From assembly GCA_050250895.1 (NCBI GenBank), contig JBFWNU010000004.1:430934-494933 (forward strand): 64,000 bases of DNA, read 5' to 3'. Source of the stretch: Vulcanimicrobiota bacterium. Lineage in GTDB: Bacteria; Vulcanimicrobiota; Xenobia; Xenobiales; JADMJV01. A model generated the notes under the pieces. That model was not told where the DNA came from. It saw nothing but the letters and a program-made list of their open reading frames with translations, and did not search any database. The position numbers were made by a program, and so were the translations under genes. Shown here one piece after another: positions 1 through 9,696 of the stretch. The stretch's first letter is position 1. Each line of letters begins with the position of its first letter.

Positions 1-843
1 CGGAGCCATCCAGGGATACCAACCCAGAAGGTTCCAGGCCGAAGCGTCGAGGACTGCCAACCCCCCTTTTACTTCCACTATCTGAGTCACCAAAAAGCCC
101 GCCGTAGCCACGATGGCCATCCCCGGCTCGACCACCAGTCGAACCCTTCTTCGTCGGGCCAGGCCTTTTCCCAACAGGGCCCAGATACGGGCGGCCGGAC
201 GTTCTCCGCGATACATCTCGGTCAAACCGCCGCCCAAATTGACCAGCTCGGTGGCCGGGAATCGGTCCAGGGCGTGCTCCAACATCTCGAGCAAGCGGCC
301 CGCCCGCTCCACGGTGGCGATCTCACCGGCGTGAACGTGCAACTGGCGCACTTCGAGTTGCCATTGCCTCAGTAGCTCGGCCAGGCGGGGACAGTCGGGG
401 TCAAAACCAAAGCGGCTGGGCTGTTGGTCCCAGCCCGGAAACGATAGCCGCAGGCCTGCCGGGCCGGGTCCGGTTAGGCGGGCCCACTGCTCTAGCTGCG
501 AATAGCCATCGAGATCGGGCAGACACCCCGCTTGCCTCAGTCGGTCCAGTTCCGCGAGCGACCAGTGGGGAGCGGTGGCGTAGAGCGGACGCAAGCCCGC
601 TTCGAGGGCGCGGGTCAGCTCTAACGAGCTGGCCACGTCAGCTCCCAGGCCCAGGTTCGCCAAGCAGCACAGCACCGCCGGACAGCGGTTGGCTTTGACC
701 GAGAAGCAAAGCCTCACTTCACCCAGTGCTTCCAGGTCGCTTCGCAGACTCGAGACCACTTCGGCCAGGCGCTCAGGGTCATAGACCACCAGCGGCGTCG
801 GCAGCTGGCTGGCGGCGCTCAGAATCTGCTCGGCTCGCGTCAC
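1..843 (-). CDS. Fold-type III PLP-dependent enzyme (DAP/Orn/Arg decarboxylase-like), paralog 2; 3' end runs off the window
   Basis: Not in the ORF track; translated by hand. GTG at 843 overlaps the upstream TGA (GTGA). Protein: MTRAEQILSAASQLPTPLVVYD...CFSVKANRCP...GADVASSLEL...SRFG...LHVHAG...VNLGGG...VEPGM...LDASAWNL. Frame is open to position 1. Confidence 0.88.
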   Translation of the reverse strand, partial: MTRAEQILSAASQLPTPLVVYDPERLAEVVSSLRSDLEALGEVRLCFSVKANRCPAVLCCLANLGLGADVASSLELTRALEAGLRPLYATAPHWSLAELDRLRQAGCLPDLDGYSQLEQWARLTGPGPAGLRLSFPGWDQQPSRFGFDPDCPRLAELLRQWQLEVRQLHVHAGEIATVERAGRLLEMLEHALDRFPATELVNLGGGLTEMYRGERPAARIWALLGKGLARRRRVRLVVEPGMAIVATAGFLVTQIVEVKGGLAVLDASAWNLLGWYPWMAP

Positions 844-1976
844 GAATCGAGGGCCCGCAGCATGACTTCGCAGGCGATCAGGGCGTCGACCTCGCGGTCT
901 GGGAGTAGCTCCACCAGGTCGATGACAGCCGGGCATGAAGATCGCACCAATTGCTCGACCAGGCGAACCAGTTCGCGGGGGGTGAACCCGCCGGGCACCG
1001 GGGTGCCAGTAGAGGGAAAGAGGCTGGGCTCAAGGCAGTCGACATCGATGGTGAGGTAAATCGGGCTCGAACTCAGACAGCTCAACCAGTCGCTATCCAG
1101 AGCGCTCAGCCCGGCAAAACGCACGATCCGAGGGTGCTGTTCGTCGTCGCTCACCAGTTGACGCACGCCAACCTGGACCACCCGCTCCAGCCGCTCGTGC
1201 TCCAGGGCCCAGGAAACGAAGTTGCCGTGATGGAGTCGATCACGCCAATCTCCCTCGACGGGTCCGGCATAATCCGAGTGGGCATCGAACTGGACCAACT
1301 GCACGGGGCCTCGGGCCATCATGCCTTGCAGGCCGGCGTAAGTGATGGAATGGTCGCCACCCAACAGCACGGGTCGCCGGCCTTGAGCGAGCAGCAGTTC
1401 GACCACCCGGGCCAGGCGCTCGAAGCACTCACCATTGCTCTGAAAGACGGCCCCGGCCAGATTGCCCAGGTCGGCCAGCCGGCGTCCGGCCAGGACTCTG
1501 CCCCCCTTCACCGGATCAAAGTCAGACCCGGCCCGGCCAAAGAGCTGAGGACTGGCCAGGCGAAGAAAGTCAGGGGCGAGCCTGGACCCGGACCGGTTCG
1601 AGCAGCCCAGGTCGTAGGCTAGACCCAGCACTACGTCGGTAATGGAAGGATCGGCCAGAACCTGTTCCAGGGCAAGCAAAGGACTGGCGAAGAGCCCCCG
1701 CCTTCCGGGCTCGAACCCCGCTCCGGGATGCTCGACTTCGAGCCACCCCTGCTCGACCAGAATGTCCACGGCCCGCTGCATCTGCTCAAAACCGAAGTCG
1801 GCTTCACCCAGAGCCTGATAAGCGGTTTGGCAGCTGCTGGCGATGCGAAAGGCGGAGAGAATCTGGTAGAAACGCTCGTCCAGGGTCTGCTGCTGACCCG
1901 TGCCCGCGTGCAGCATGTGATGGCGCCCGTCCTGATAGTGGCTGCGGACGACTTTAGTGGGGATGCGGAAGCGCAA
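840..1976 (-). CDS. Arginase/agmatinase-family ureohydrolase with ~90-aa N-terminal RRE/wHTH-like extension (putative peptide arginase)
   Basis: Mn-binding motifs GGDHS, FDAHSD, TIDVDCLEP..PSTGTPVPGG. N-terminus looks like beta strands followed by helices, ending in AVDILVEQGWLE. Confidence 0.85.
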   Translation of the reverse strand: MRFRIPTKVVRSHYQDGRHHMLHAGTGQQQTLDERFYQILSAFRIASSCQTAYQALGEADFGFEQMQRAVDILVEQGWLEVEHPGAGFEPGRRGLFASPLLALEQVLADPSITDVVLGLAYDLGCSNRSGSRLAPDFLRLASPQLFGRAGSDFDPVKGGRVLAGRRLADLGNLAGAVFQSNGECFERLARVVELLLAQGRRPVLLGGDHSITYAGLQGMMARGPVQLVQFDAHSDYAGPVEGDWRDRLHHGNFVSWALEHERLERVVQVGVRQLVSDDEQHPRIVRFAGLSALDSDWLSCLSSSPIYLTIDVDCLEPSLFPSTGTPVPGGFTPRELVRLVEQLVRSSCPAVIDLVELLPDREVDALIACEVMLRALDS

Positions 1977-3186
1977 GCTCCTGGTGCTGCTTTCCGTTCT
2001 TCGAGGGTAGCCGGCCGTGGGTCGGTTCCAGCACCTGCAGGCGACCGTCGAGGAAGACGTACTCTCGAGGCAAGGGGATACGATTGAAAAGCCTCGAGTT
2101 GGTCAGGGTGTAGGCCCCCGCCGAGGTGATCAACAGCCGATCTCCGACTTGACAGGGCCCAAGCATGAAGCGACTCTGTCGGCCACTGACATCGCGGCCA
2201 AAAAAATCACCCTCGTAGAGCGTATTGCCGGCCAGCAGCACTTCGGAGTCGGGTCCCGTTCGTGGCGCCACCGCGGCGACTTTGGGCTTGTGCCAGGGAG
2301 CTAGATTCCAGGCCGAAGCGTCGAGGGTCAACAGGCGAACATCCCAATGCCGGTGGAATTCGACCGCGCGAATTTCGCTGACCAGATAGCCGATGGCGGT
2401 CAGGATCCCGCCTCCTGGCTCGAAACGAAAGTAAACCGGCCGCCCCCTACGCCGCGCAAACCGTTCGGCCATGCGAGCGATGGTGGCGAAGGCCTGGCGG
2501 GCGGCCCGCCGCTGGGGGTAGAGATGGAAGAAGCCACCGCCGACGTCGAGCCACTGCGCGTGTTCGTGACGCAAAGCTTGGCTCAACAAAAAGCGGGCTT
2601 TGAAGACCAGAGCCTCGGGAGTGGTCTGGCCCGTATGCAAATGAAATCTCGTCACCTTCAGCCCGTATTGCTCGAGCAAGCTGCCCAGGCGCGGATGATC
2701 GGGCTCGATGCCGAAGCGACTATCGCGGGTGAAGGTGCTATGCCCCTCGAGGGCCGAGGGAAATTCCATCCGAAGTCGCAAGCCCACTTCGCCTCCTGGA
2801 AAGGCCTTCCCGTAGGTCTCGAGTTGAGAGAGCGAGTCTACATCAGGAATGATACCGGCGGCCCGGAAGCACTCGAAATCGGCCACCGAAAAGGCCGGCC
2901 CGGTACAGGAAATCTCGTCGAAACCGGCCGCCTGGGCAAGCTCGAGTTCACCGAGGCTGGCCACGTCACAGCCCAGACCGTGGCTCTGAACCCGCTGCAA
3001 AACCGGCAGGGTATGACAAGCCTTGACGGCCAGGTTGAGCCTGGCATCAGGAATGAGGGCTACGTCCTCGAGCATGCGCTCGAGCAGAAGGTCGAGAGCG
3101 CCAAAGTCGTAGATGATAGCCGGAGTGGGAAGCTCTTGGGCTGCCTCGAGAAGCCGTAAATCGGTCGGCGGATAAAGTTCGGACAA
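1954..3186 (-). CDS. Fold-type III PLP-dependent enzyme (DAP/Orn/Arg decarboxylase-like), paralog 1
   Basis: LPTPAIIYD, AVKAC (PLP Lys), DVASLGEL, SRFG, HLHTG, LDVGGGF, EPGG, SAGAY. The usual GPxCxxxD motif reads GNTLYEGD. Confidence 0.88.
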   Translation of the reverse strand: MSELYPPTDLRLLEAAQELPTPAIIYDFGALDLLLERMLEDVALIPDARLNLAVKACHTLPVLQRVQSHGLGCDVASLGELELAQAAGFDEISCTGPAFSVADFECFRAAGIIPDVDSLSQLETYGKAFPGGEVGLRLRMEFPSALEGHSTFTRDSRFGIEPDHPRLGSLLEQYGLKVTRFHLHTGQTTPEALVFKARFLLSQALRHEHAQWLDVGGGFFHLYPQRRAARQAFATIARMAERFARRRGRPVYFRFEPGGGILTAIGYLVSEIRAVEFHRHWDVRLLTLDASAWNLAPWHKPKVAAVAPRTGPDSEVLLAGNTLYEGDFFGRDVSGRQSRFMLGPCQVGDRLLITSAGAYTLTNSRLFNRIPLPREYVFLDGRLQVLEPTHGRLPSKNGKQHQELALPHPH

Positions 3187-3191
3187 AGCCC

Positions 3192-3752
3192 TCAGGCTAA
3201 TTCCGTCGTTCCGCGAGGGCGACTACCGCCCGCCACCTGGGTGTCGAAGTCGAGCTCGGGGCCCCGGGGACGGCTGCCCCCGGCCACCTGGGTATCGAAA
3301 TCGAGTTCGGGACCGCGCGGACGGCTGCCGCCAGCGACCTGGGTGTCAAAATCGAGTTCGGGCCCTCGCGGACGGCTGCCGCCGGCCACCTGGGTGTCAA
3401 AATTGAGTTCGGGCCCCCGGGGACGGCTGCCGCCGGCCACCTGGGTGTCAAAATTGAGTTCGGGCCCCCGGGGACGGCTGCCGCCGGCCACCTGGGTGTC
3501 AAAATTGAGTTCGGGCCCCCGGGGACGGCTGCCGCCGGCCACCTGGGTGTCGAAATTGAGGTCGGCGCCCAATCCTTCGCGAACCTTGCCGGTGTCAGCC
3601 GAGGCTGAACGGGCAAACGAGGCGGCCTGGCTAGAGGGCGCTTTGACTGGCGCGTTGGCTTGACCACCTTTGGATTTGGAAGCCTCAGGGGGCTTGGTGG
3701 TGCGCTTGGGTCCTTGAGGCGGAGTCCCGCCCGAGCCGATTTTCTTAGCCAT
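3192..3752 (-). CDS. Putative multi-core RiPP precursor peptide (186 aa; ~64-aa leader + 7 cores)
   Basis: Strong RBS (GAAGGAGG) before ATG at 3752 (MAKKIGSGG...). Cores are 4x LNFDTQVAGGSRPRGPE and 3x LDF-type, the last ending RGTTELA. First gene of the operon. Confidence 0.8.
   Translation of the reverse strand: MAKKIGSGGTPPQGPKRTTKPPEASKSKGGQANAPVKAPSSQAASFARSASADTGKVREGLGADLNFDTQVAGGSRPRGPELNFDTQVAGGSRPRGPELNFDTQVAGGSRPRGPELNFDTQVAGGSRPRGPELDFDTQVAGGSRPRGPELDFDTQVAGGSRPRGPELDFDTQVAGGSRPRGTTELA
3210..3560 (-). repeat. In-frame 51-nt tandem repeat x7 encoding the precursor cores
   Basis: Period is 51 nt. Copies differ mainly at synonymous third positions, plus one N>D change. Confidence 0.95.
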
Positions 3753-3834
3753 AGTCAACCTCCTTCGAAAAGGTTCGGGTCGGGCCAAATTTCTCCTTTG
3801 AAGGTAGAGAACCCGCAGAGCCGAAGCCAGACTC

Positions 3835-4200
3835 GTGAAAAATCGCGTCAACAGTTACGTCGAGCAGATCATCAACGCCATGGAGGCCGAGCAGCCCTTC
3901 GATGCAGCTCGGGTCCTGGCTACGCTACGAGACCTGCGAGAGCGACTCGAGGTGGTCTATAAAAAATACGAGGGCTCTATCCCCGATGGAACCGAAGAAA
4001 TCCAACAAACCATGCTGGATGGTCTGCAACTGCTGTATCGGGGCCTCGAAGACCTGGAGATGCTGGTATTGGGTGAACCCAGCGAAGAGGATCTCGTCGT
4101 TTCGGCTCTTTCGAACTGCCAGGAAGCAGAGGACTGCTTCAAAGTCGTCGACGACCTGGCCGAGCAGGTGACGGCGACTCAGCCAGGCTTCATGGGCTAA
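3835..4200 (+). CDS. Hypothetical all-helical protein
   Basis: 121-aa ORF divergent from the precursor, 2 nt upstream of the GNAT gene. Confidence 0.7.
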   Translation: MKNRVNSYVEQIINAMEAEQPFDAARVLATLRDLRERLEVVYKKYEGSIPDGTEEIQQTMLDGLQLLYRGLEDLEMLVLGEPSEEDLVVSALSNCQEAEDCFKVVDDLAEQVTATQPGFMG

Positions 4201-4202
4201 AC

Positions 4203-5102
4203 GTGACGCTAGCCGTACGTCCGGGACGGACCGATGACCTTCCCTTCCTCGATCGTCTTTTCCAGGAGTTCTTAGGCGACCCTGAGCGAACCATCTACTA
4301 TCCTCGCTTCGAGCAAAGCAACGAGCTGCTGGCTGAACTCAAAATGTGGGGCGCCGAACTGGCCGATGTCGCCAGAGTGGTCACTCTTGACGCACAAGCG
4401 GTTGGCTTTAGCGGCTATCTGGCCAGTCCCGGCGACGACGATGCCTACCTGATCGGCCCCCTGCTCCGCCAACCCCACCATCAAGAGAAGACCCTGCTGG
4501 CCGTTCTATCGCTGTTAGAACTCGAGGGACAGGTGTTTCAAGCTGTAACCAGTTGCCTGTGCGAGACCAATCTCGAACTATTGGCGGCCTATCGCGCCCT
4601 GGGTTGGAACGAGAAGGCCGGTCAACTCGAGATGGAGTGGAAACGCTCGCGCAACGAGCCCCGGCCTCAGGCCCCGGTGAACCTGCTGGAGCCGGGCCAT
4701 GTCAGGCTTGAAGAAGTTGCCGATGTGCTCGGAGCCGGCCTGGGCTGGCAAGCATCCCCCATCAAGCGAGTGAGGACATTGCTGGAGGAAGGCTATCGGG
4801 TTGGTTATCTGCTCGACCAGGACCAGGTGTCGGCGGCGGCAGTCTGGGTCTACCTGGACGCTACCGATTTTGGGCGGATTGAATATCTGGCTACCAGCCC
4901 GAGTTGTCGCCGCCGGGGATTGGCCGGCCAACTGCTAGACCACATCCTCTGGCACGATTTGCCAGCAGTGGCCGAATCCGCCTTCGTCAGCGTCGAGAGG
5001 GACAATCAGGCAGCCCAAGGCCTCTATCTCGCTCACGGATTCGAGCTCACGCACAAGGCGGTCATGGTGACCCGCCCGAAGACCTCGGGCGGGGCAACCT
5101 GA
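4203..5102 (+). CDS. Tandem GNAT N-acyltransferase
   Basis: C-terminal GNAT motif A (IEYLATSPSCRRRGLAGQLL) and motif B (VERDNQAAQGLYLAHGF). Degenerate N-terminal GNAT (NLELLAAYRALGW). Confidence 0.8.
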   Translation: MTLAVRPGRTDDLPFLDRLFQEFLGDPERTIYYPRFEQSNELLAELKMWGAELADVARVVTLDAQAVGFSGYLASPGDDDAYLIGPLLRQPHHQEKTLLAVLSLLELEGQVFQAVTSCLCETNLELLAAYRALGWNEKAGQLEMEWKRSRNEPRPQAPVNLLEPGHVRLEEVADVLGAGLGWQASPIKRVRTLLEEGYRVGYLLDQDQVSAAAVWVYLDATDFGRIEYLATSPSCRRRGLAGQLLDHILWHDLPAVAESAFVSVERDNQAAQGLYLAHGFELTHKAVMVTRPKTSGGAT

Positions 5103-5123: not shown

Positions 5124-6194
5124 TCAGTCGGCGGAACTGAGATTACGACGGAATCGGCTCTCGAGCCAGCCGGCCTGCTGGGCCGGCAAGGAGCGTCCAT
5201 AGAGCCAGCTGTTGACCGCCTCGTGGAATTTGTCCAACCCGTCAAAGGGGGTGGCCCCGCCCGCCACTTCGCCACGGATGGCCAGCAGCCGAGCACTGGG
5301 CGGCGGCACCGGCTGGCGATAGGCATGCTCGCGAATCCAGGCCAGCTTTCCACCAAGCCTGCCGCGGGCATGCACCATCAGGTCAGGGTCGGCCTCGATA
5401 GCCTTCCAGTCAAGAATCAGCTGGGCGTGGCAATCCGCGAAGTCTTCGGCCGCATTGCCCACCACTTCGGGCGAAGGATAGTCGGCCGGCGAGCTGGTCT
5501 TGCCAAAGGGCGTGTCGGGCTGCTCCGAGCGAAAGCCCGCCGGACTCAGAGCCGCGTCCACCAGATGGCCCACCTCGTGAAAGAGAACGCCCCGAGTCGA
5601 GTCCAGGTCAAAGCAGAGCGAGGCCAACAGCGACACCGCAGTGCCGCCCCCGGCCAGGCCTAAAACGGCAGAACCGTCAGGCAGCGTGCCCAGCGAGGTT
5701 CTCAGGTTCACCGATCGCAGCACGGTCATGGCCCGGGTGCCGGTCTTCTCGGAAAGTTCTTTGACGGCCGCCCGCACCTGCTCGAGTTGGCGCGGGTGGC
5801 GCACCCCAGTGATGGCCACCTGGCAGTCACCCTGGTGGGTCGGCCCGAGGGCCTGGTTGACCCGCCGATGCTCGGCGCAAGTCCCCAGCATGACGAAGCC
5901 TTTAGCCCCACTGATACTGTCCCAGGCAAGCCCGGTCAATCCCGCCACCAGGCCCGGATGCCAAGTTCCGCCGAGGCCGGCCACCAGCGTGAGGGAAGAA
6001 CTCAAATCGCGAAGGTAACCGGCCAGCCTGGGGTCGGCGCAGGATTTGACCGGCCCAGGCACCAGAGCGGCGGCCGGGTCAGGCCACAGGCTAGCCTCGA
6101 ACGTGTCGAGGCAGACCAGCTGCTGCTCGCTGATTGAAGGTGGGCGCGCGTGAGGCCAGTTGCTGGGGCTGACGAGGCTAAGCGGATTCACCAT
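5124..6194 (-). CDS. Putative zinc metallopeptidase (HExxH)
   Basis: VLFHEVGHLVD followed by NAAEDFAD (candidate third ligand). Confidence 0.6.
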   Translation of the reverse strand: MVNPLSLVSPSNWPHARPPSISEQQLVCLDTFEASLWPDPAAALVPGPVKSCADPRLAGYLRDLSSSLTLVAGLGGTWHPGLVAGLTGLAWDSISGAKGFVMLGTCAEHRRVNQALGPTHQGDCQVAITGVRHPRQLEQVRAAVKELSEKTGTRAMTVLRSVNLRTSLGTLPDGSAVLGLAGGGTAVSLLASLCFDLDSTRGVLFHEVGHLVDAALSPAGFRSEQPDTPFGKTSSPADYPSPEVVGNAAEDFADCHAQLILDWKAIEADPDLMVHARGRLGGKLAWIREHAYRQPVPPPSARLLAIRGEVAGGATPFDGLDKFHEAVNSWLYGRSLPAQQAGWLESRFRRNLSSAD

Positions 6195-6289
6195 CTCTAA
6201 CCTAGCCAGCGAGCGTCAAGTGAACGTCATTGCGATTTAACGAACTGTTCGGAAGAAGTTTCGATTCTCGATGTAGAAGAAATTTCAAT

Positions 6290-7588
6290 ATGACGTTGCA
6301 ACTCCAGATCCAACCGCGCACCGCCGAGACCATCATCGCCGCCCTGCGGGCCGGCACCGTCCCCCAAGAGGGCCTGGCTCACTATGCCGTCGGCCTTGAC
6401 CCCCAGCTAGCCGCCCTGCAAGAGCAGATGCGCTTCGTGGCCTCGGGCCGCAGCGCCTATAAATTCATCCGCGGCAGCTACGGCTCGGGCAAGACCTTTC
6501 TCACCAGCCTGGCCGCCAGTCTGGCTCCCGAGCACGGCTTTCTCTTCTCGAAGGTGGTCATCTCCTCCACCGACACGCCTCTGTTCAAGCTGGTCGAAGT
6601 CTATCGGCGAGCCTGCCAGGGTCTGTCGCTGTCGCCTGACCGGGTAGGCGGCGGCCTGCGCAGCCTGCTCGACCGCTGGCTCTACAATCTTGAAGAAAAG
6701 GTGGTCAACCTGCAGGGCCTCGACGAAGACAGCCCCGAGTTCGCCGAAGCCGTCAAGGCCCAGGTGCAACAGCAGTTGACCGTGGTGGGCGACTCGGCCG
6801 GCCGGCTGGCTGCCTGTCTGGCCGCCTATCATCAGGCCCAGCTCGAGCAAGACTTCGAGCAATCGCGGGCCCTGCTCGACTGGATGGCCGGCGAGCCCAA
6901 GGTGGCGGCCCACCTCAAGCGCGTGGCCGGTGTCACCGGCCAACTCGAAAACAGCGACGCGCTGGCCTTTTTGCGCGGCCTGCTCGAGGTCATGCGGGCC
7001 TCGGGTTACAACGGCCTGGTGCTGGTGCTCGACGAGGTCGAGACGGTGTTGCGCCTGCGCCGGCCCGAACGGCACAAAAGCCTCGAGGTGCTGCGCCAAC
7101 TGATCGACGCCTGCGACCGCCACGAGTTTCCCGGGTTGCAACTGCTGGTCACCGGCACTCCCGATTTCTTCGAGAGTTCGCAGGGCGTGCCGGCCCTGGC
7201 GCCCCTTAACGACCGCATCAAGGTGCTGTTTGAAGAGGGTCAGCCCGACAATCTGCGCCAACCCCAGATCCGCCTGGCCGCCTTCGGAGCCGAACGCCTG
7301 TCCGAAGTGGCCCGCAAAGTGCGCGATCTGTATCCTGGCGAAGGGCGCCACCGCTTTAGCGAGGCTGTCATCGGGCAGATGGTCGATCGCTTCACGGCTG
7401 GCTTCGGCGGTCGGGTCGATGTGGTGCCGCGCCTGTTCTTGCGCGAGCTGGTGCACCAGTTGGACCTGGCCGATCAATATCCCGACTATGACCCGCTGGG
7501 CGGCCTGCGCACCCAGGTCGACGACTCGGCTCTCACTCCCGAAGAAAAAAGCCTGCTCGAGCCGGCCGGCAAAGAGATCGAGCTGTGA
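6290..7588 (+). CDS. brxD: BREX system ATP-binding protein BrxD (DUF2791-like)
   Basis: IIAALRAGTVP..GL..YAVGLD, Walker A IRGSYGSGKT, ISSTDTPL, Walker B LVLDEVET, DNLRQPQIRL. ATG at 6290 preferred over 6230. Confidence 0.85.
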   Translation: MTLQLQIQPRTAETIIAALRAGTVPQEGLAHYAVGLDPQLAALQEQMRFVASGRSAYKFIRGSYGSGKTFLTSLAASLAPEHGFLFSKVVISSTDTPLFKLVEVYRRACQGLSLSPDRVGGGLRSLLDRWLYNLEEKVVNLQGLDEDSPEFAEAVKAQVQQQLTVVGDSAGRLAACLAAYHQAQLEQDFEQSRALLDWMAGEPKVAAHLKRVAGVTGQLENSDALAFLRGLLEVMRASGYNGLVLVLDEVETVLRLRRPERHKSLEVLRQLIDACDRHEFPGLQLLVTGTPDFFESSQGVPALAPLNDRIKVLFEEGQPDNLRQPQIRLAAFGAERLSEVARKVRDLYPGEGRHRFSEAVIGQMVDRFTAGFGGRVDVVPRLFLRELVHQLDLADQYPDYDPLGGLRTQVDDSALTPEEKSLLEPAGKEIEL

Positions 7589-9696
7589 CGGCCACGGCGG
7601 CCATCAACCCCTTCTTTCGCCTCTCCCAGCGGCTGCGCGACAACATCGTCAGCCGGCTGGGCTGGCGTTCTTTGCGACCGGTCCAAGAGCTTTCTATCGA
7701 CCCTCTCATCGAGGGCAAGAATGCGCTGGTGCTGGCTCCCACCGCCGGCGGCAAAACCGAGGCAGCCATGCTGCCTCTGCTCGACTCGCTGGTGGCTCGT
7801 CCGCCGGCCAGCACGGCCATCATCTATCTCTCGCCGTTGCGGGCTTTGATCAACAATCAAGAAGACCGGGTCGAATTCCTGGCCGGGCTGGTGGGGGCCA
7901 CCTCGTTCAAGTGGCACGGCGAGGTGCCTCAAAACGAGCGCAACCGCTATCTGACCCAGCCCGACCCGGTGCTGCTCATCACCCCCGAGTCGCTCGAGGT
8001 GATCGTGAGCAGCCGCGGCTACGACAAGAAGAAGCTGTTCGGCGACCTGCGGGCGGTGGTTATCGACGAGATCCACGCCTTCGCCGGCGACGATCGGGGT
8101 GACCACCTGGTGGCCCTGCTCGAGCGCCTCTCGCGCATGCTTGGTAACGACTTTCAGCGAATCGGTTTGTCGGCCACCGTGGGCAACCCGGCCAAACTGC
8201 TCGAGTGGTTGTGCGGCCAGAGCCAGCGCCCCTCGCAGATCGTCGACCCGGGGCGGGCCAAAGCCCGGCGTCTCATCGAGGTGCGCCCGCTGGCCCCCGA
8301 AGAAGACCGCGGTTTCATCGGGTCGCTTTTGGCCCAGGGTAAGAAGTCGCTGCTATTCACCGATTCCCGCGGCCAGGCCGAGAAACTACAAAAGGCCATG
8401 GCGGGGGCGGGAGTGCGTACCCTGGCCCACCACAGCTCGCTTTCCAAAGAGCTGCGCGAAGAGACCGAGAACGCCTTTCGGGCCGGCAGCAACTGTTGCA
8501 TCGTGTGCACCTCGACGCTGGAGTTGGGCCTGGATGTGGGCGATCTCGACCTGGTCATGCAGTGCGACGCCCCCTATTCGGTGTCGGCTTTCTTGCAACG
8601 CCTGGGCCGCACCGGCCGGCGCGAAGGCAGTCGCGGCCACATGTGTTTTCTCACCGATCAAGAGTGGAGCTTTCTGCGCGCCTGTGCCCTGGTCAGCCTG
8701 GCCGTCGAAGGCTATGTCGAGCCGGTTCGCCCCACCACCCGGGCCTCGCACGTGTTCGTGCAACAGTTGCTGTTGCGGGTGCTCGAGGGCGGCGACACGG
8801 GCATCGCCAGCCTGCTGGCCGGCATGGGCAATCCCTACTGCTTTCGCGATCTGAGTGCCCGCGAGCGCGAAGAGATCGTGGCTCACCTGCTGGCCATGGG
8901 CGCCCTGGCCAAGGTCGACTCGCGCCTGATCTTTGGGCCCGAGGGCGAGAAGCGCTTTGCCACCAGTAACTTTCGCGACCTCTACTGCGTGTTTGACTCG
9001 AGCAACCAGCTCACGGTGGTCACCCGGGCCAACCGCACGGTGGGCAGCATCGAGGCCTGGTTCGCCCAATCGCTGGGCAAGACGGGCTTTGTCTTTTCGC
9101 TGGGCGGGCGCGCCTGGAAGGCCCTCGAGTGCGACTGGAATCGGGGCGTGCTGGTGGTCGAGCAGTCCCTGGGCGGGTCGGCTCCCTCCTGGACCGGCCC
9201 TCCCCGACCGCTCTCGCGGCGGCTGGCCGAAAAGATCCGCGACCTGCTGGTCGAGGTCGAGCCGGTGGCCTTTTTGGCCGAGCCCGCTCAGGCCGTGCTC
9301 GACAAGCTGCGGGGCGAGTGGGGCCGACGCCTCGAAGACGGGCCCACCGTCGAGGCGGTGGGCAAACGCCTGCGTATTCTCACCTTTGCCGGCGGTCAGG
9401 TGAACAATCTGCTGGCTCGCTATCTAGAGCTGCACATGGGCAGCCGGGTGGCCAGCAACAACTACTGGCTGATGGCCGATCTCGAAGCGAGTCGGCTGGC
9501 CGAGATCCTCACCTGCATCAGTGGTCCCGACGACCTGGCCGCGGCCACTGTCGAAGTGCCCCGCGGTCGGCTGTCGAAGTTTCAAGAATTACTGCCCCCC
9601 CAGCTCGAGCGCGAGTTCTTGATGGAAAGACTCTACGACATTCCGGCCACCCTCGAAGTGGTCGAACGCCTCAAGGAAGCAAGATGGCAACTGTAA
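7585..9696 (+). CDS. brxHI: Lhr-like DEAD/DEAH helicase, BrxHI type
   Basis: LGWRSLRPVQ, APTAGGKT, YLSPLRAL, TPESLE, DEIH, LSAT, TSTLELGLDVG, QRLGRTGRR. Coupled to brxD by a GTGA overlap. Confidence 0.85.
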   Translation: MTATAAINPFFRLSQRLRDNIVSRLGWRSLRPVQELSIDPLIEGKNALVLAPTAGGKTEAAMLPLLDSLVARPPASTAIIYLSPLRALINNQEDRVEFLAGLVGATSFKWHGEVPQNERNRYLTQPDPVLLITPESLEVIVSSRGYDKKKLFGDLRAVVIDEIHAFAGDDRGDHLVALLERLSRMLGNDFQRIGLSATVGNPAKLLEWLCGQSQRPSQIVDPGRAKARRLIEVRPLAPEEDRGFIGSLLAQGKKSLLFTDSRGQAEKLQKAMAGAGVRTLAHHSSLSKELREETENAFRAGSNCCIVCTSTLELGLDVGDLDLVMQCDAPYSVSAFLQRLGRTGRREGSRGHMCFLTDQEWSFLRACALVSLAVEGYVEPVRPTTRASHVFVQQLLLRVLEGGDTGIASLLAGMGNPYCFRDLSAREREEIVAHLLAMGALAKVDSRLIFGPEGEKRFATSNFRDLYCVFDSSNQLTVVTRANRTVGSIEAWFAQSLGKTGFVFSLGGRAWKALECDWNRGVLVVEQSLGGSAPSWTGPPRPLSRRLAEKIRDLLVEVEPVAFLAEPAQAVLDKLRGEWGRRLEDGPTVEAVGKRLRILTFAGGQVNNLLARYLELHMGSRVASNNYWLMADLEASRLAEILTCISGPDDLAAATVEVPRGRLSKFQELLPPQLEREFLMERLYDIPATLEVVERLKEARWQL

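Follow-up and report, generated by a model that had tools for sequence, protein, structure and literature searches.

The locus examined here, carried by a Vulcanimicrobiota bacterium (GenBank assembly GCA_050250895.1), raises the question of what two paralogous enzymes dependent on pyridoxal 5'-phosphate (PLP) and encoded in one operon may do when one of them has lost a residue that defines the decarboxylase superfamily to which both belong. The window, i.e. the whole 64,000-nucleotide stretch of DNA that was analysed, covers positions 430934-494933 of contig JBFWNU010000004.1, and 12 kb upstream of it on the same contig (locus sequence L002) were fetched to complete the operon. From the analyses below, the two proteins, PLP1 and PLP2, look like a new clade of a known superfamily, with the defining residue lost in PLP1, within an apparent new family of peptides that the ribosome makes and that are modified after translation (RiPPs). 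The two genes are as follows, the first 312 residues of PLP2 lying inside the window and its last 77 residues (234 nt), beyond the window start, being read from L002.

PLP1, 1954-3186, minus strand: 410 residues, a fold-type III (alanine-racemase-fold) PLP enzyme encoded by a single open reading frame (ORF)
PLP2, 1-936 and L002 11767-12000, minus strand: 389 residues in full, a paralogue of PLP1 and likewise a fold-III PLP enzyme

Comparison with established families supports the placement of PLP1 and PLP2 in a distinct subfamily of the fold-III decarboxylase superfamily, as judged from their sequences. Both proteins match PF02784 above its 23.4-bit cut-off (66.3 bits for PLP1 and 58 bits for PLP2), and both fall far under the cut-offs of the LysA model TIGR01048 (101.2 and 116 bits against 297.9; 357 for the control LysA P0069) and the NspC model TIGR01047 (45.1 and 34.6 bits against 409; 509 for the control NspC P0117). 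Five PF02784 genes are present in the genome, including a LysA-like gene, a SpeA-like gene and a separate LysA, fused to an aspartate kinase, which scores 320.8 bits against the 297.9 cut-off. In a database search, PLP1-type clusters numbered about 67; they share 37-55% identity and derive from Streptomyces, Nocardia, Nocardiopsis, Nonomuraea, Actinoplanes, Lysinibacillus, Bacillus and metagenomes, after which the significance of the matches drops sharply, from E-values of 1e-43 to 1e-20 for generic LysA-like proteins.

Two trees were built, one of 61 rows with LG+G4 and one of 43 rows with the C20 mixture model, both as quick searches with support from the Shimodaira-Hasegawa-like approximate likelihood ratio test (SH-aLRT) only. 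PLP1 and PLP2 together form one clade (SH-aLRT 100 under LG+G4 and 99 under C20), within which PLP1 is monophyletic (90 and 97), and which stands apart from the LysA, ODC-like, NspC and MccE-like groups in both trees. The MccE-like clade, holding a decarboxylase-GNAT fusion (P0101) that we call MccE-like from its domain make-up only, has a support of 100 without PLP1 and PLP2. A sister relation of the PLP1/PLP2 clade to NspC, supported at 88 under LG+G4, was not recovered under the mixture model (node 62) and was set aside. The original prediction, made from the letters of the window, had proposed a distinct subfamily; the separate clade, the scores far under the LysA and NspC cut-offs and the presence of another LysA in the genome all bear this out, as does the finding that neither protein nests within the LysA, ODC-like or NspC groups.

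Inspection of the active sites revealed what sets PLP1 apart. PLP1 carries the motifs LNLAVKACH, FHLHTGQ, DVGGGF, FEPGGGI, LDASAWNLAPWH, LLAGNTLYEGDFF and AGAYT, together with LDASAWNL and GNTLYEGD; PLP2 carries FSVKANR, LHVHAGE, NLGGGL, VEPGMAI and LDASAWNL and, outside the window, GCSCYEKD, such that its Cys is kept. The motifs that had been named from sequence were all found where they had been placed, and the catalytic Cys is indeed absent from PLP1. Retained in PLP1 are the PLP lysine (Lys55), His182/184, GGG216-218, Glu256 and Tyr359, with the catalytic Cys replaced by Leu323 and the Arg of the EPGR motif by Gly259. The best solved relative of PLP1 in a PDB sequence search is E. coli LysA (1KNW, E 2e-22), and alignment to this protein (K-12 lysA) places AGNTLYEGD of PLP1 on AGPLCESGD, Leu323 on Cys342 and Gly259 on the EPGR Arg.

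Motif counts were taken from a 144-sequence alignment that includes 65 PLP1-type and 19 PLP2-type proteins and other fold-III relatives. At the catalytic position the 65 PLP1-type proteins carry Leu (64) or Met (one) and never Cys, and Cys is found in 19/19 PLP2-type proteins and in 55/55 other relatives, including E. coli LysA and the LysA of this genome. A passage of PMC7857480 describes this Cys as conserved in all alanine-racemase-fold decarboxylases. Given this distribution, the loss of Cys in the PLP1 type is not a chance substitution: it is real, fixed and exceptional. The change at EPGR is a different matter. It too is real (EPGG in PLP1, EPGM in PLP2), but reading it as the loss of a canonical decarboxylase residue, as had been proposed, overstates it, because the Arg is also absent from P0117 (EPGE), which scores above the NspC cut-off, and from the MccE-like group (EPGA), such that its absence says little.

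The PLP lysine, stacking His, GGG phosphate loop, EPG Glu and GAY Tyr are present in 65/65 PLP1-type and 19/19 PLP2-type proteins. As all PLP-binding residues are thus invariant among PLP1-type proteins, an active, PLP-using PLP1 is probable. The PLP1 type also strongly conserves the loop that surrounds position 323, in which Gly320, Tyr324, Glu325 and Asp327 are invariant; this loop is therefore still under selection. Ser291, Trp293, Trp298, Tyr324, Glu325 and Arg365 are common to PLP1 and PLP2 and absent from the other relatives. The following positions are conserved inside each type and differ between the two, His58 being specific to the PLP1 type (98% of PLP1 proteins).

Position 58: His in PLP1, Arg in PLP2
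Position 187: Gln in PLP1, Glu in PLP2
Position 214: Asp in PLP1, Asn in PLP2
Position 259: Gly in PLP1, Met in PLP2
Position 323: Leu in PLP1, Cys in PLP2
Positions 362-363: Thr-Asn in PLP1, Ser-Met in PLP2
Position 368: Asn in PLP1, His in PLP2

PLP1 and PLP2 lie in a tightly packed minus-strand operon that runs from a repeat-bearing ORF, the putative precursor peptide, through PLP1, an arginase-family gene (ARG) and PLP2 to X537, which is located outside the window. Its remaining features are:

Precursor ORF, 3192-3851, minus strand: 219 residues from a TTG start
Repeat region of the precursor, 3210-3566, minus strand: seven 17-residue units in tandem
ARG, 840-1976, minus strand: 378-residue arginase/agmatinase-family hydrolase, overlapping the end of PLP1
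N-terminal domain of ARG (residues 1-112), 1641-1976, minus strand: similar by predicted fold to a RiPP recognition element (RRE)
X537, L002 10328-11941, just outside the window, minus strand: 537 residues, no sequence-family match

A scan of one genome per species yielded 26 loci in other genomes, 24 of them with a true PLP1. ARG and a homologue of X537 stand beside PLP1 in all 24 (the X537 match in L025 is weak, at 30% identity), and these loci span Actinomycetota, Bacillota and a Solirubrobacteraceae metagenome-assembled genome (MAG; L006), in addition to which there is the locus of the present genome. PLP2 is found in 17 of the 24 PLP1 loci and a GNAT gene in three; homologues of the oxygenase OXY_b occur in 12, either following X537 or lying between PLP2 and PLP1. 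In Lysinibacillus the operon consists of a regulator, a 32-residue precursor, PLP1, ARG, PLP2, X537 and an ATP-binding cassette (ABC) exporter. The conserved core of the cluster comprises the precursor, ARG, X537 and PLP1, with PLP2, GNAT, two 2-oxoglutarate (2OG) oxygenases and exporters as accessory genes; no protease conserved across the loci was found. Variant clusters lacking PLP2 (L022 6454-7680 and 10117-14102) contain two ABC-transporter genes between X537 and ARG, and an HExxH-motif ORF upstream of the precursor. The two remaining loci of the scan are singletons encoding PLP2-like proteins with Cys and without ARG or X537 (L026 2633-3862 and L028 7899-9116), one in an Acidobacteriota MAG and the other in Streptomyces beside a carrier-protein-like ORF, and they may show the role of the family before PLP1 arose.

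The same survey bears on whether PLP1 and PLP2 form an obligate heterodimer, in which PLP1 supplies the PLP pocket, and PLP2 the Cys loop, of a single complete active site. Active sites of fold-III enzymes are built across a dimer, both paralogues are present in one operon here, and PLP2 alone has the Cys. However, PLP2 is absent from 7/24 PLP1 loci, and in whole-genome searches of five PLP2-less genomes the only strong match to PLP2 was in every case PLP1 itself (E 1e-34 to 1e-43), the next matches being at 1e-11 or weaker (1e-11 to 1e-13). PLP1 keeps its Leu in these genomes, and it therefore functions with no PLP2 present in some members of the family; in genomes that have both, a heterodimer is conceivable. 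A heterodimer, raised as a possibility in the original prediction, is consequently not supported as a requirement, and we consider an obligate one very improbable.

The product of the repeat-bearing ORF has the features of a precursor peptide. Its stop codon lies 5 nt ahead of the PLP1 start codon, and an ATG at residue 34 is a likelier start than the TTG. The seven tandem units follow the pattern (A/P)(D/E)L(N/D)FDTQVAGGSRPRG; the first opens with Ala-Asp and the others with Pro-Glu, one position varies between Asn and Asp, and all other changes are synonymous. There are two such units in L006 and one in the other genomes. A short ORF adjoins PLP1 (or PLP2 where PLP2 leads the cluster) in 24/24 PLP1 loci, and in each it ends in the pattern ...(D/E)L..L(G/A)(G/A)[S/N/T]-R-P-x(1-8), with core variants GGSRPR (18 loci), GSRPVGN (2 loci) and A(M/A)(N/S/T)RP(K/S) (4 loci). 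The Arg-Pro motif was first spotted by eye and then searched with patterns requiring it, such that its invariance is partly by construction. A candidate link between PLP2 and the second Arg of the SRPR core was rejected, with SRPR occurring without PLP2 in L013, L015 and L025, and SRPV with PLP2 in L007 and L017.

The partner enzymes are consistent with a peptide context. ARG matches PF00491 at 170 bits, keeps the metal motifs GGDHS, DAHSD and DVDCLEP, and has agmatinases as its best PDB sequence matches, to which is added an N-terminal extension of about 112 residues. An AlphaFold2 model of residues 1-112 built with 17 homologues has a predicted local distance difference test (pLDDT) score of 83 and displays a beta-sheet followed by three helices; Foldseek matched it to TbiB1, which binds lasso-peptide leaders, in complex with its leader (5v1v, E 2e-4), and to TigE, MccB, the cyanobactin heterocyclases LynD/TruD and PqqD. 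Scanned against Pfam with E-values up to 10, the N-terminal domains of ten ARG proteins gave no match to the PqqD/RRE family and only sub-threshold winged-helix matches. The predicted fold suggests that this domain is an RRE. A complex prediction for the domain with two precursor repeat units, run without controls, scored 0.25 against a mark of 0.32 and is given no weight here.

X537 matched nothing in Pfam, NCBIfam or, by sequence, the PDB. Its model, built with 20 homologues (pLDDT 85), retrieved methionine gamma-lyase CalE6, cystathionine gamma-lyase (CGL) and cystathionine gamma-synthase (CGS) in Foldseek (E about 1e-13, target template-modelling score 0.63-0.74), and the family has an invariant K324 (SGLK) and D291 (DTT). 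Of 48 database relatives, nearly all are annotated 'hypothetical protein' and one (P0158) 'PLP-dependent transferase', and two carry PF01053 among their precomputed matches, a profile that is itself silent on X537. The modelled fold points to X537 as a cystathionine/methionine-gamma-lyase-like fold-I PLP enzyme.

We consider it likely that PLP1 and PLP2 are peptide-tailoring PLP enzymes of a RiPP cluster, rather than housekeeping enzymes of amino-acid or polyamine metabolism. For their chemistry we tentatively propose, by analogy and at somewhat less than an even chance, a scheme of grafting followed by decarboxylation, which builds on family placement, the pattern of residues, the linkage of the genes and the folds predicted for the partners, and in which every chemical step is our proposal. 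Leader-guided ARG would hydrolyse the core Arg to ornithine (Orn), exposing its delta-amine. Gamma-family PLP enzymes convert derivatives of homoserine or methionine into electrophilic vinylglycine intermediates, and X537 could by gamma-replacement graft an amino-acid unit, e.g. 3-amino-3-carboxypropyl, onto that amine. PLP1, with PLP2 where present, would then engage the grafted unit by its free alpha-amine and take off its carboxylate, leaving Orn with an aminopropyl-type chain, i.e. a polyamine-like side chain. With Leu at the Cys position, the PLP1 carbanion would need another proton donor, for which His58, Lys55 or Tyr324 may serve, or another course, such as aldehyde formation in place of protonation; ODC Cys360 mutants reportedly behave like aldehyde-forming variants. 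The original prediction had envisaged action on a peptide amine such as a newly formed Orn side chain or a released N-terminus, and direct action on either is possible. The peptide with new Orn gains indirect support from the RRE-like domain of ARG and the Arg-Pro precursor in 24/24 loci, and the gamma-lyase-like X537 just outside the window makes a grafted amino acid the more likely substrate. The proposed scheme parallels LolC/LolD, Mur23, MccD/MccE and carboxynorspermidine decarboxylase (NspC). Precedents for such substrates exist: passages of PMC7857480 and PMC11350588 describe MccE-NTD, BtrK and Mur23 as fold-III decarboxylases of peptide-, carrier- or nucleoside-borne amino acids, the latter source also naming LolD as a type III decarboxylase of non-standard substrates, and a passage of PMC4274035 proposes that LolC joins a homoserine carbon to an amine by gamma-substitution.

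A number of observations weigh against the proposed scheme. PLP1 lacks the Cys that the cited passage of PMC7857480 calls conserved throughout the alanine-racemase-fold decarboxylases, which makes a plain decarboxylase role uncertain. ARG is nearer to agmatinases than to the known peptide arginase OspR, and the assignment of X537 is drawn from its predicted fold, with Pfam, NCBIfam and PDB sequence searches all silent. The deep position of the PLP1/PLP2 family, including its tie to NspC, varies between trees (88, then 62). Finally, the scheme does not explain why some clusters need two paralogues; the presence of PLP2 shows no correspondence to the core's second Arg.

Several other readings were weighed against the graft-then-decarboxylate scheme. 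In line with the original prediction, PLP1 and/or PLP2 might act directly on the delta-amine of peptidyl-Orn; this would be by deprotonation or transamination (yielding e.g. glutamate-semialdehyde, then cyclisation) and with no decarboxylation. The fusion of the arginase to an RRE and the conservation of Arg-Pro in the core do imply a peptidyl-Orn amine, the residue that finishes decarboxylation is missing in 65/65 PLP1 proteins that keep PLP binding, and the LysA residues aligned with the SAWNLAPW segment are replaced. We nevertheless regard this reading as unlikely: it leaves X537, which co-occurs in 24/24 loci, without an obvious amine nucleophile, PLP2 keeps the whole decarboxylase residue set, and no fold-III enzyme with activity towards a side-chain omega-amine is known to us. 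Rather unlikely, too, is that PLP1 is a natural aldehyde former, decarboxylating the grafted unit and then, through C4' protonation or reaction with O2, generating a peptide aldehyde that cyclises, with PLP2 as an ordinary decarboxylase. The replacement of Cys by Leu or Met in 65/65 PLP1 proteins and its retention in 19/19 PLP2 proteins fit such a division of labour, and a fold-I decarboxylase that gives aldehyde once its proton-donating Tyr is changed to Phe provides a precedent for the aldehyde outcome (in a passage of PMC7497351). A transaminating enzyme would, however, need recycling of pyridoxamine 5'-phosphate, for which no partner was identified, and His58 (98% of PLP1) or Lys55 could stand in as proton donor.

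That the enzymes act on free small molecules, as a co-substrate or polyamine route, with the peptide ORF as an unrelated or regulatory neighbour, appears improbable. ARG is most like agmatinases, and a decarboxylase with an agmatinase is the classic route to putrescine; yet ARG carries an RRE-like domain, a short ORF with a conserved core adjoins the enzymes in 24/24 loci across phyla, its seven repeats in this genome differ almost only synonymously, and distinct SpeA-like and LysA genes are present in the genome. In a further reading, PLP1 is a racemase or epimerase, or carries out another alpha-proton reaction, at an N-terminal residue that cleavage has exposed. Its fold is shared with alanine racemase and the Cys specific to decarboxylases is gone, but PLP1 falls by Pfam in the decarboxylase branch (PF02784) and clusters in the trees with relatives of decarboxylase type, the loci have no conserved protease, and X537 would be left unexplained; we give this reading very little weight.

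Comparison with characterised systems helps to delimit the cluster. MccE-NTD is, like PLP1, a fold-III PLP enzyme in a RiPP pathway, and passages of PMC7857480 and PMC11350588 describe it as decarboxylating a peptide-attached 3-amino-3-carboxypropyl group in partnership with a GNAT. The loop motifs are also alike (xTCMEND in the MccE-like group, xxCYExD in PLP2 and NTLYExD in PLP1), but the MccE-like proteins form their own clade (support 100) and keep Cys, and the donor enzyme MccD is dependent on S-adenosylmethionine with a phosphoramidate attachment, as opposed to the gamma-lyase-like X537 and Orn proposed here. The pairing of a gamma-family PLP enzyme with a type III PLP decarboxylase recalls LolC and LolD (passages of PMC4274035 and PMC11350588), which differ in being fungal and acting on free proline rather than a peptide, and which we liken to X537 and PLP1 by description only, not by sequence. 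LysA shares the fold and all PLP-binding residues, and is distinguished by its Cys342 in place of the PLP1 Leu, by the EPGR Arg absent from both PLP1 and PLP2, and by its separate clade. NspC acts on an aminocarboxypropyl-amine, which among free compounds comes chemically nearest to the grafted Orn proposed here, and it likewise lacks the EPGR Arg (EPGE in P0117), but NspC keeps Cys, and PLP1 and PLP2 score low on its model. BtrK of butirosin biosynthesis, a fold-III decarboxylase of a carrier-tethered amino acid according to a passage of PMC7857480, uses an acyl carrier protein thioester as carrier, and its sequence match is weak (E 7e-4, residues 18-113 only).

OspR and ARG are both arginase-fold enzymes of a RiPP cluster and are presumed to turn Arg into Orn. 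A passage of PMC10028609 describes GGDHS and SxDxDxxDP as replaced in OspR and a dimerisation domain as present, whereas ARG keeps GGDHS and DVDCLEP and has an RRE-like domain in place of the dimerisation domain. OspR (8BRP) was not among the best 60 of 71 PDB matches to ARG, and ARG looks like a second peptide-arginase lineage, independent of OspR. The literature searched, which did not cover subscription journals and supplementary files, held no description of the cluster, and the words PLP, decarboxylase, pyridoxal and RRE are all absent from a 2025 paper on peptide arginases (PMC12703449).

The operon is flanked by further ORFs, among them:

GNAT299, 4203-5102, plus strand: acetyltransferase family (PF00583, PF13508), divergent from the operon
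O121, 3835-4200, plus strand: 121-residue ORF directly upstream of GNAT299, no Pfam match
Two adjacent 2OG-Fe(II) oxygenase ORFs, one of them OXY_b, L002 9090-10333, plus strand: convergent with the operon

Homologues of GNAT299 occur right after PLP1 in L003, L006 and L008 (32% identity over about 290 residues by tblastn); an apparent PLP1-GNAT fusion in L003 was ruled out by a stop codon between the two genes. The membership of O121 in the cluster is uncertain, and a search for its counterpart in the other cluster loci gave no match. An M3 peptidase ORF in L002 is likewise convergent with the operon. Further along the window, a 356-residue ORF (5124-6194, minus strand) with a FHEVGHL (HExxH-like) motif and no Pfam match, and with no homologue in the other loci, may be a metalloprotease at the cluster border, and a 452-residue ORF is followed by an overlapping 703-residue DEAD/DEAH-type helicase-like ORF (6230-9696, plus strand).

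Ribosomal peptide pathways rarely contain PLP enzymes, MccE being the one example described in the review PMC11350588. If the proposed reading is true, the cluster would represent a new route to non-proteinogenic, polyamine-like residues from an encoded Arg. A bolder version, which we regard as possible though doubtful, envisages a new class of RiPPs: a single Arg would be rebuilt into a polyamine-like or cyclised residue by three PLP enzymes together with an arginase fused to an RRE, and PLP1 would be the first natural Cys-less fold-III 'decarboxylase', its carbanion steered to a new outcome (an aldehyde, or a C-C or C-N bond). In that version, the seven-copy precursor would release seven products per translation. 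Because the cluster occurs in culturable strains, including Streptomyces, Nocardiopsis, Nonomuraea, Lysinibacillus and members of the Bacillus group, its product and chemistry are directly testable. The fixed change from Cys to Leu in PLP1 provides a natural experiment on the fate of the carbanion after CO2 loss in fold-III enzymes.

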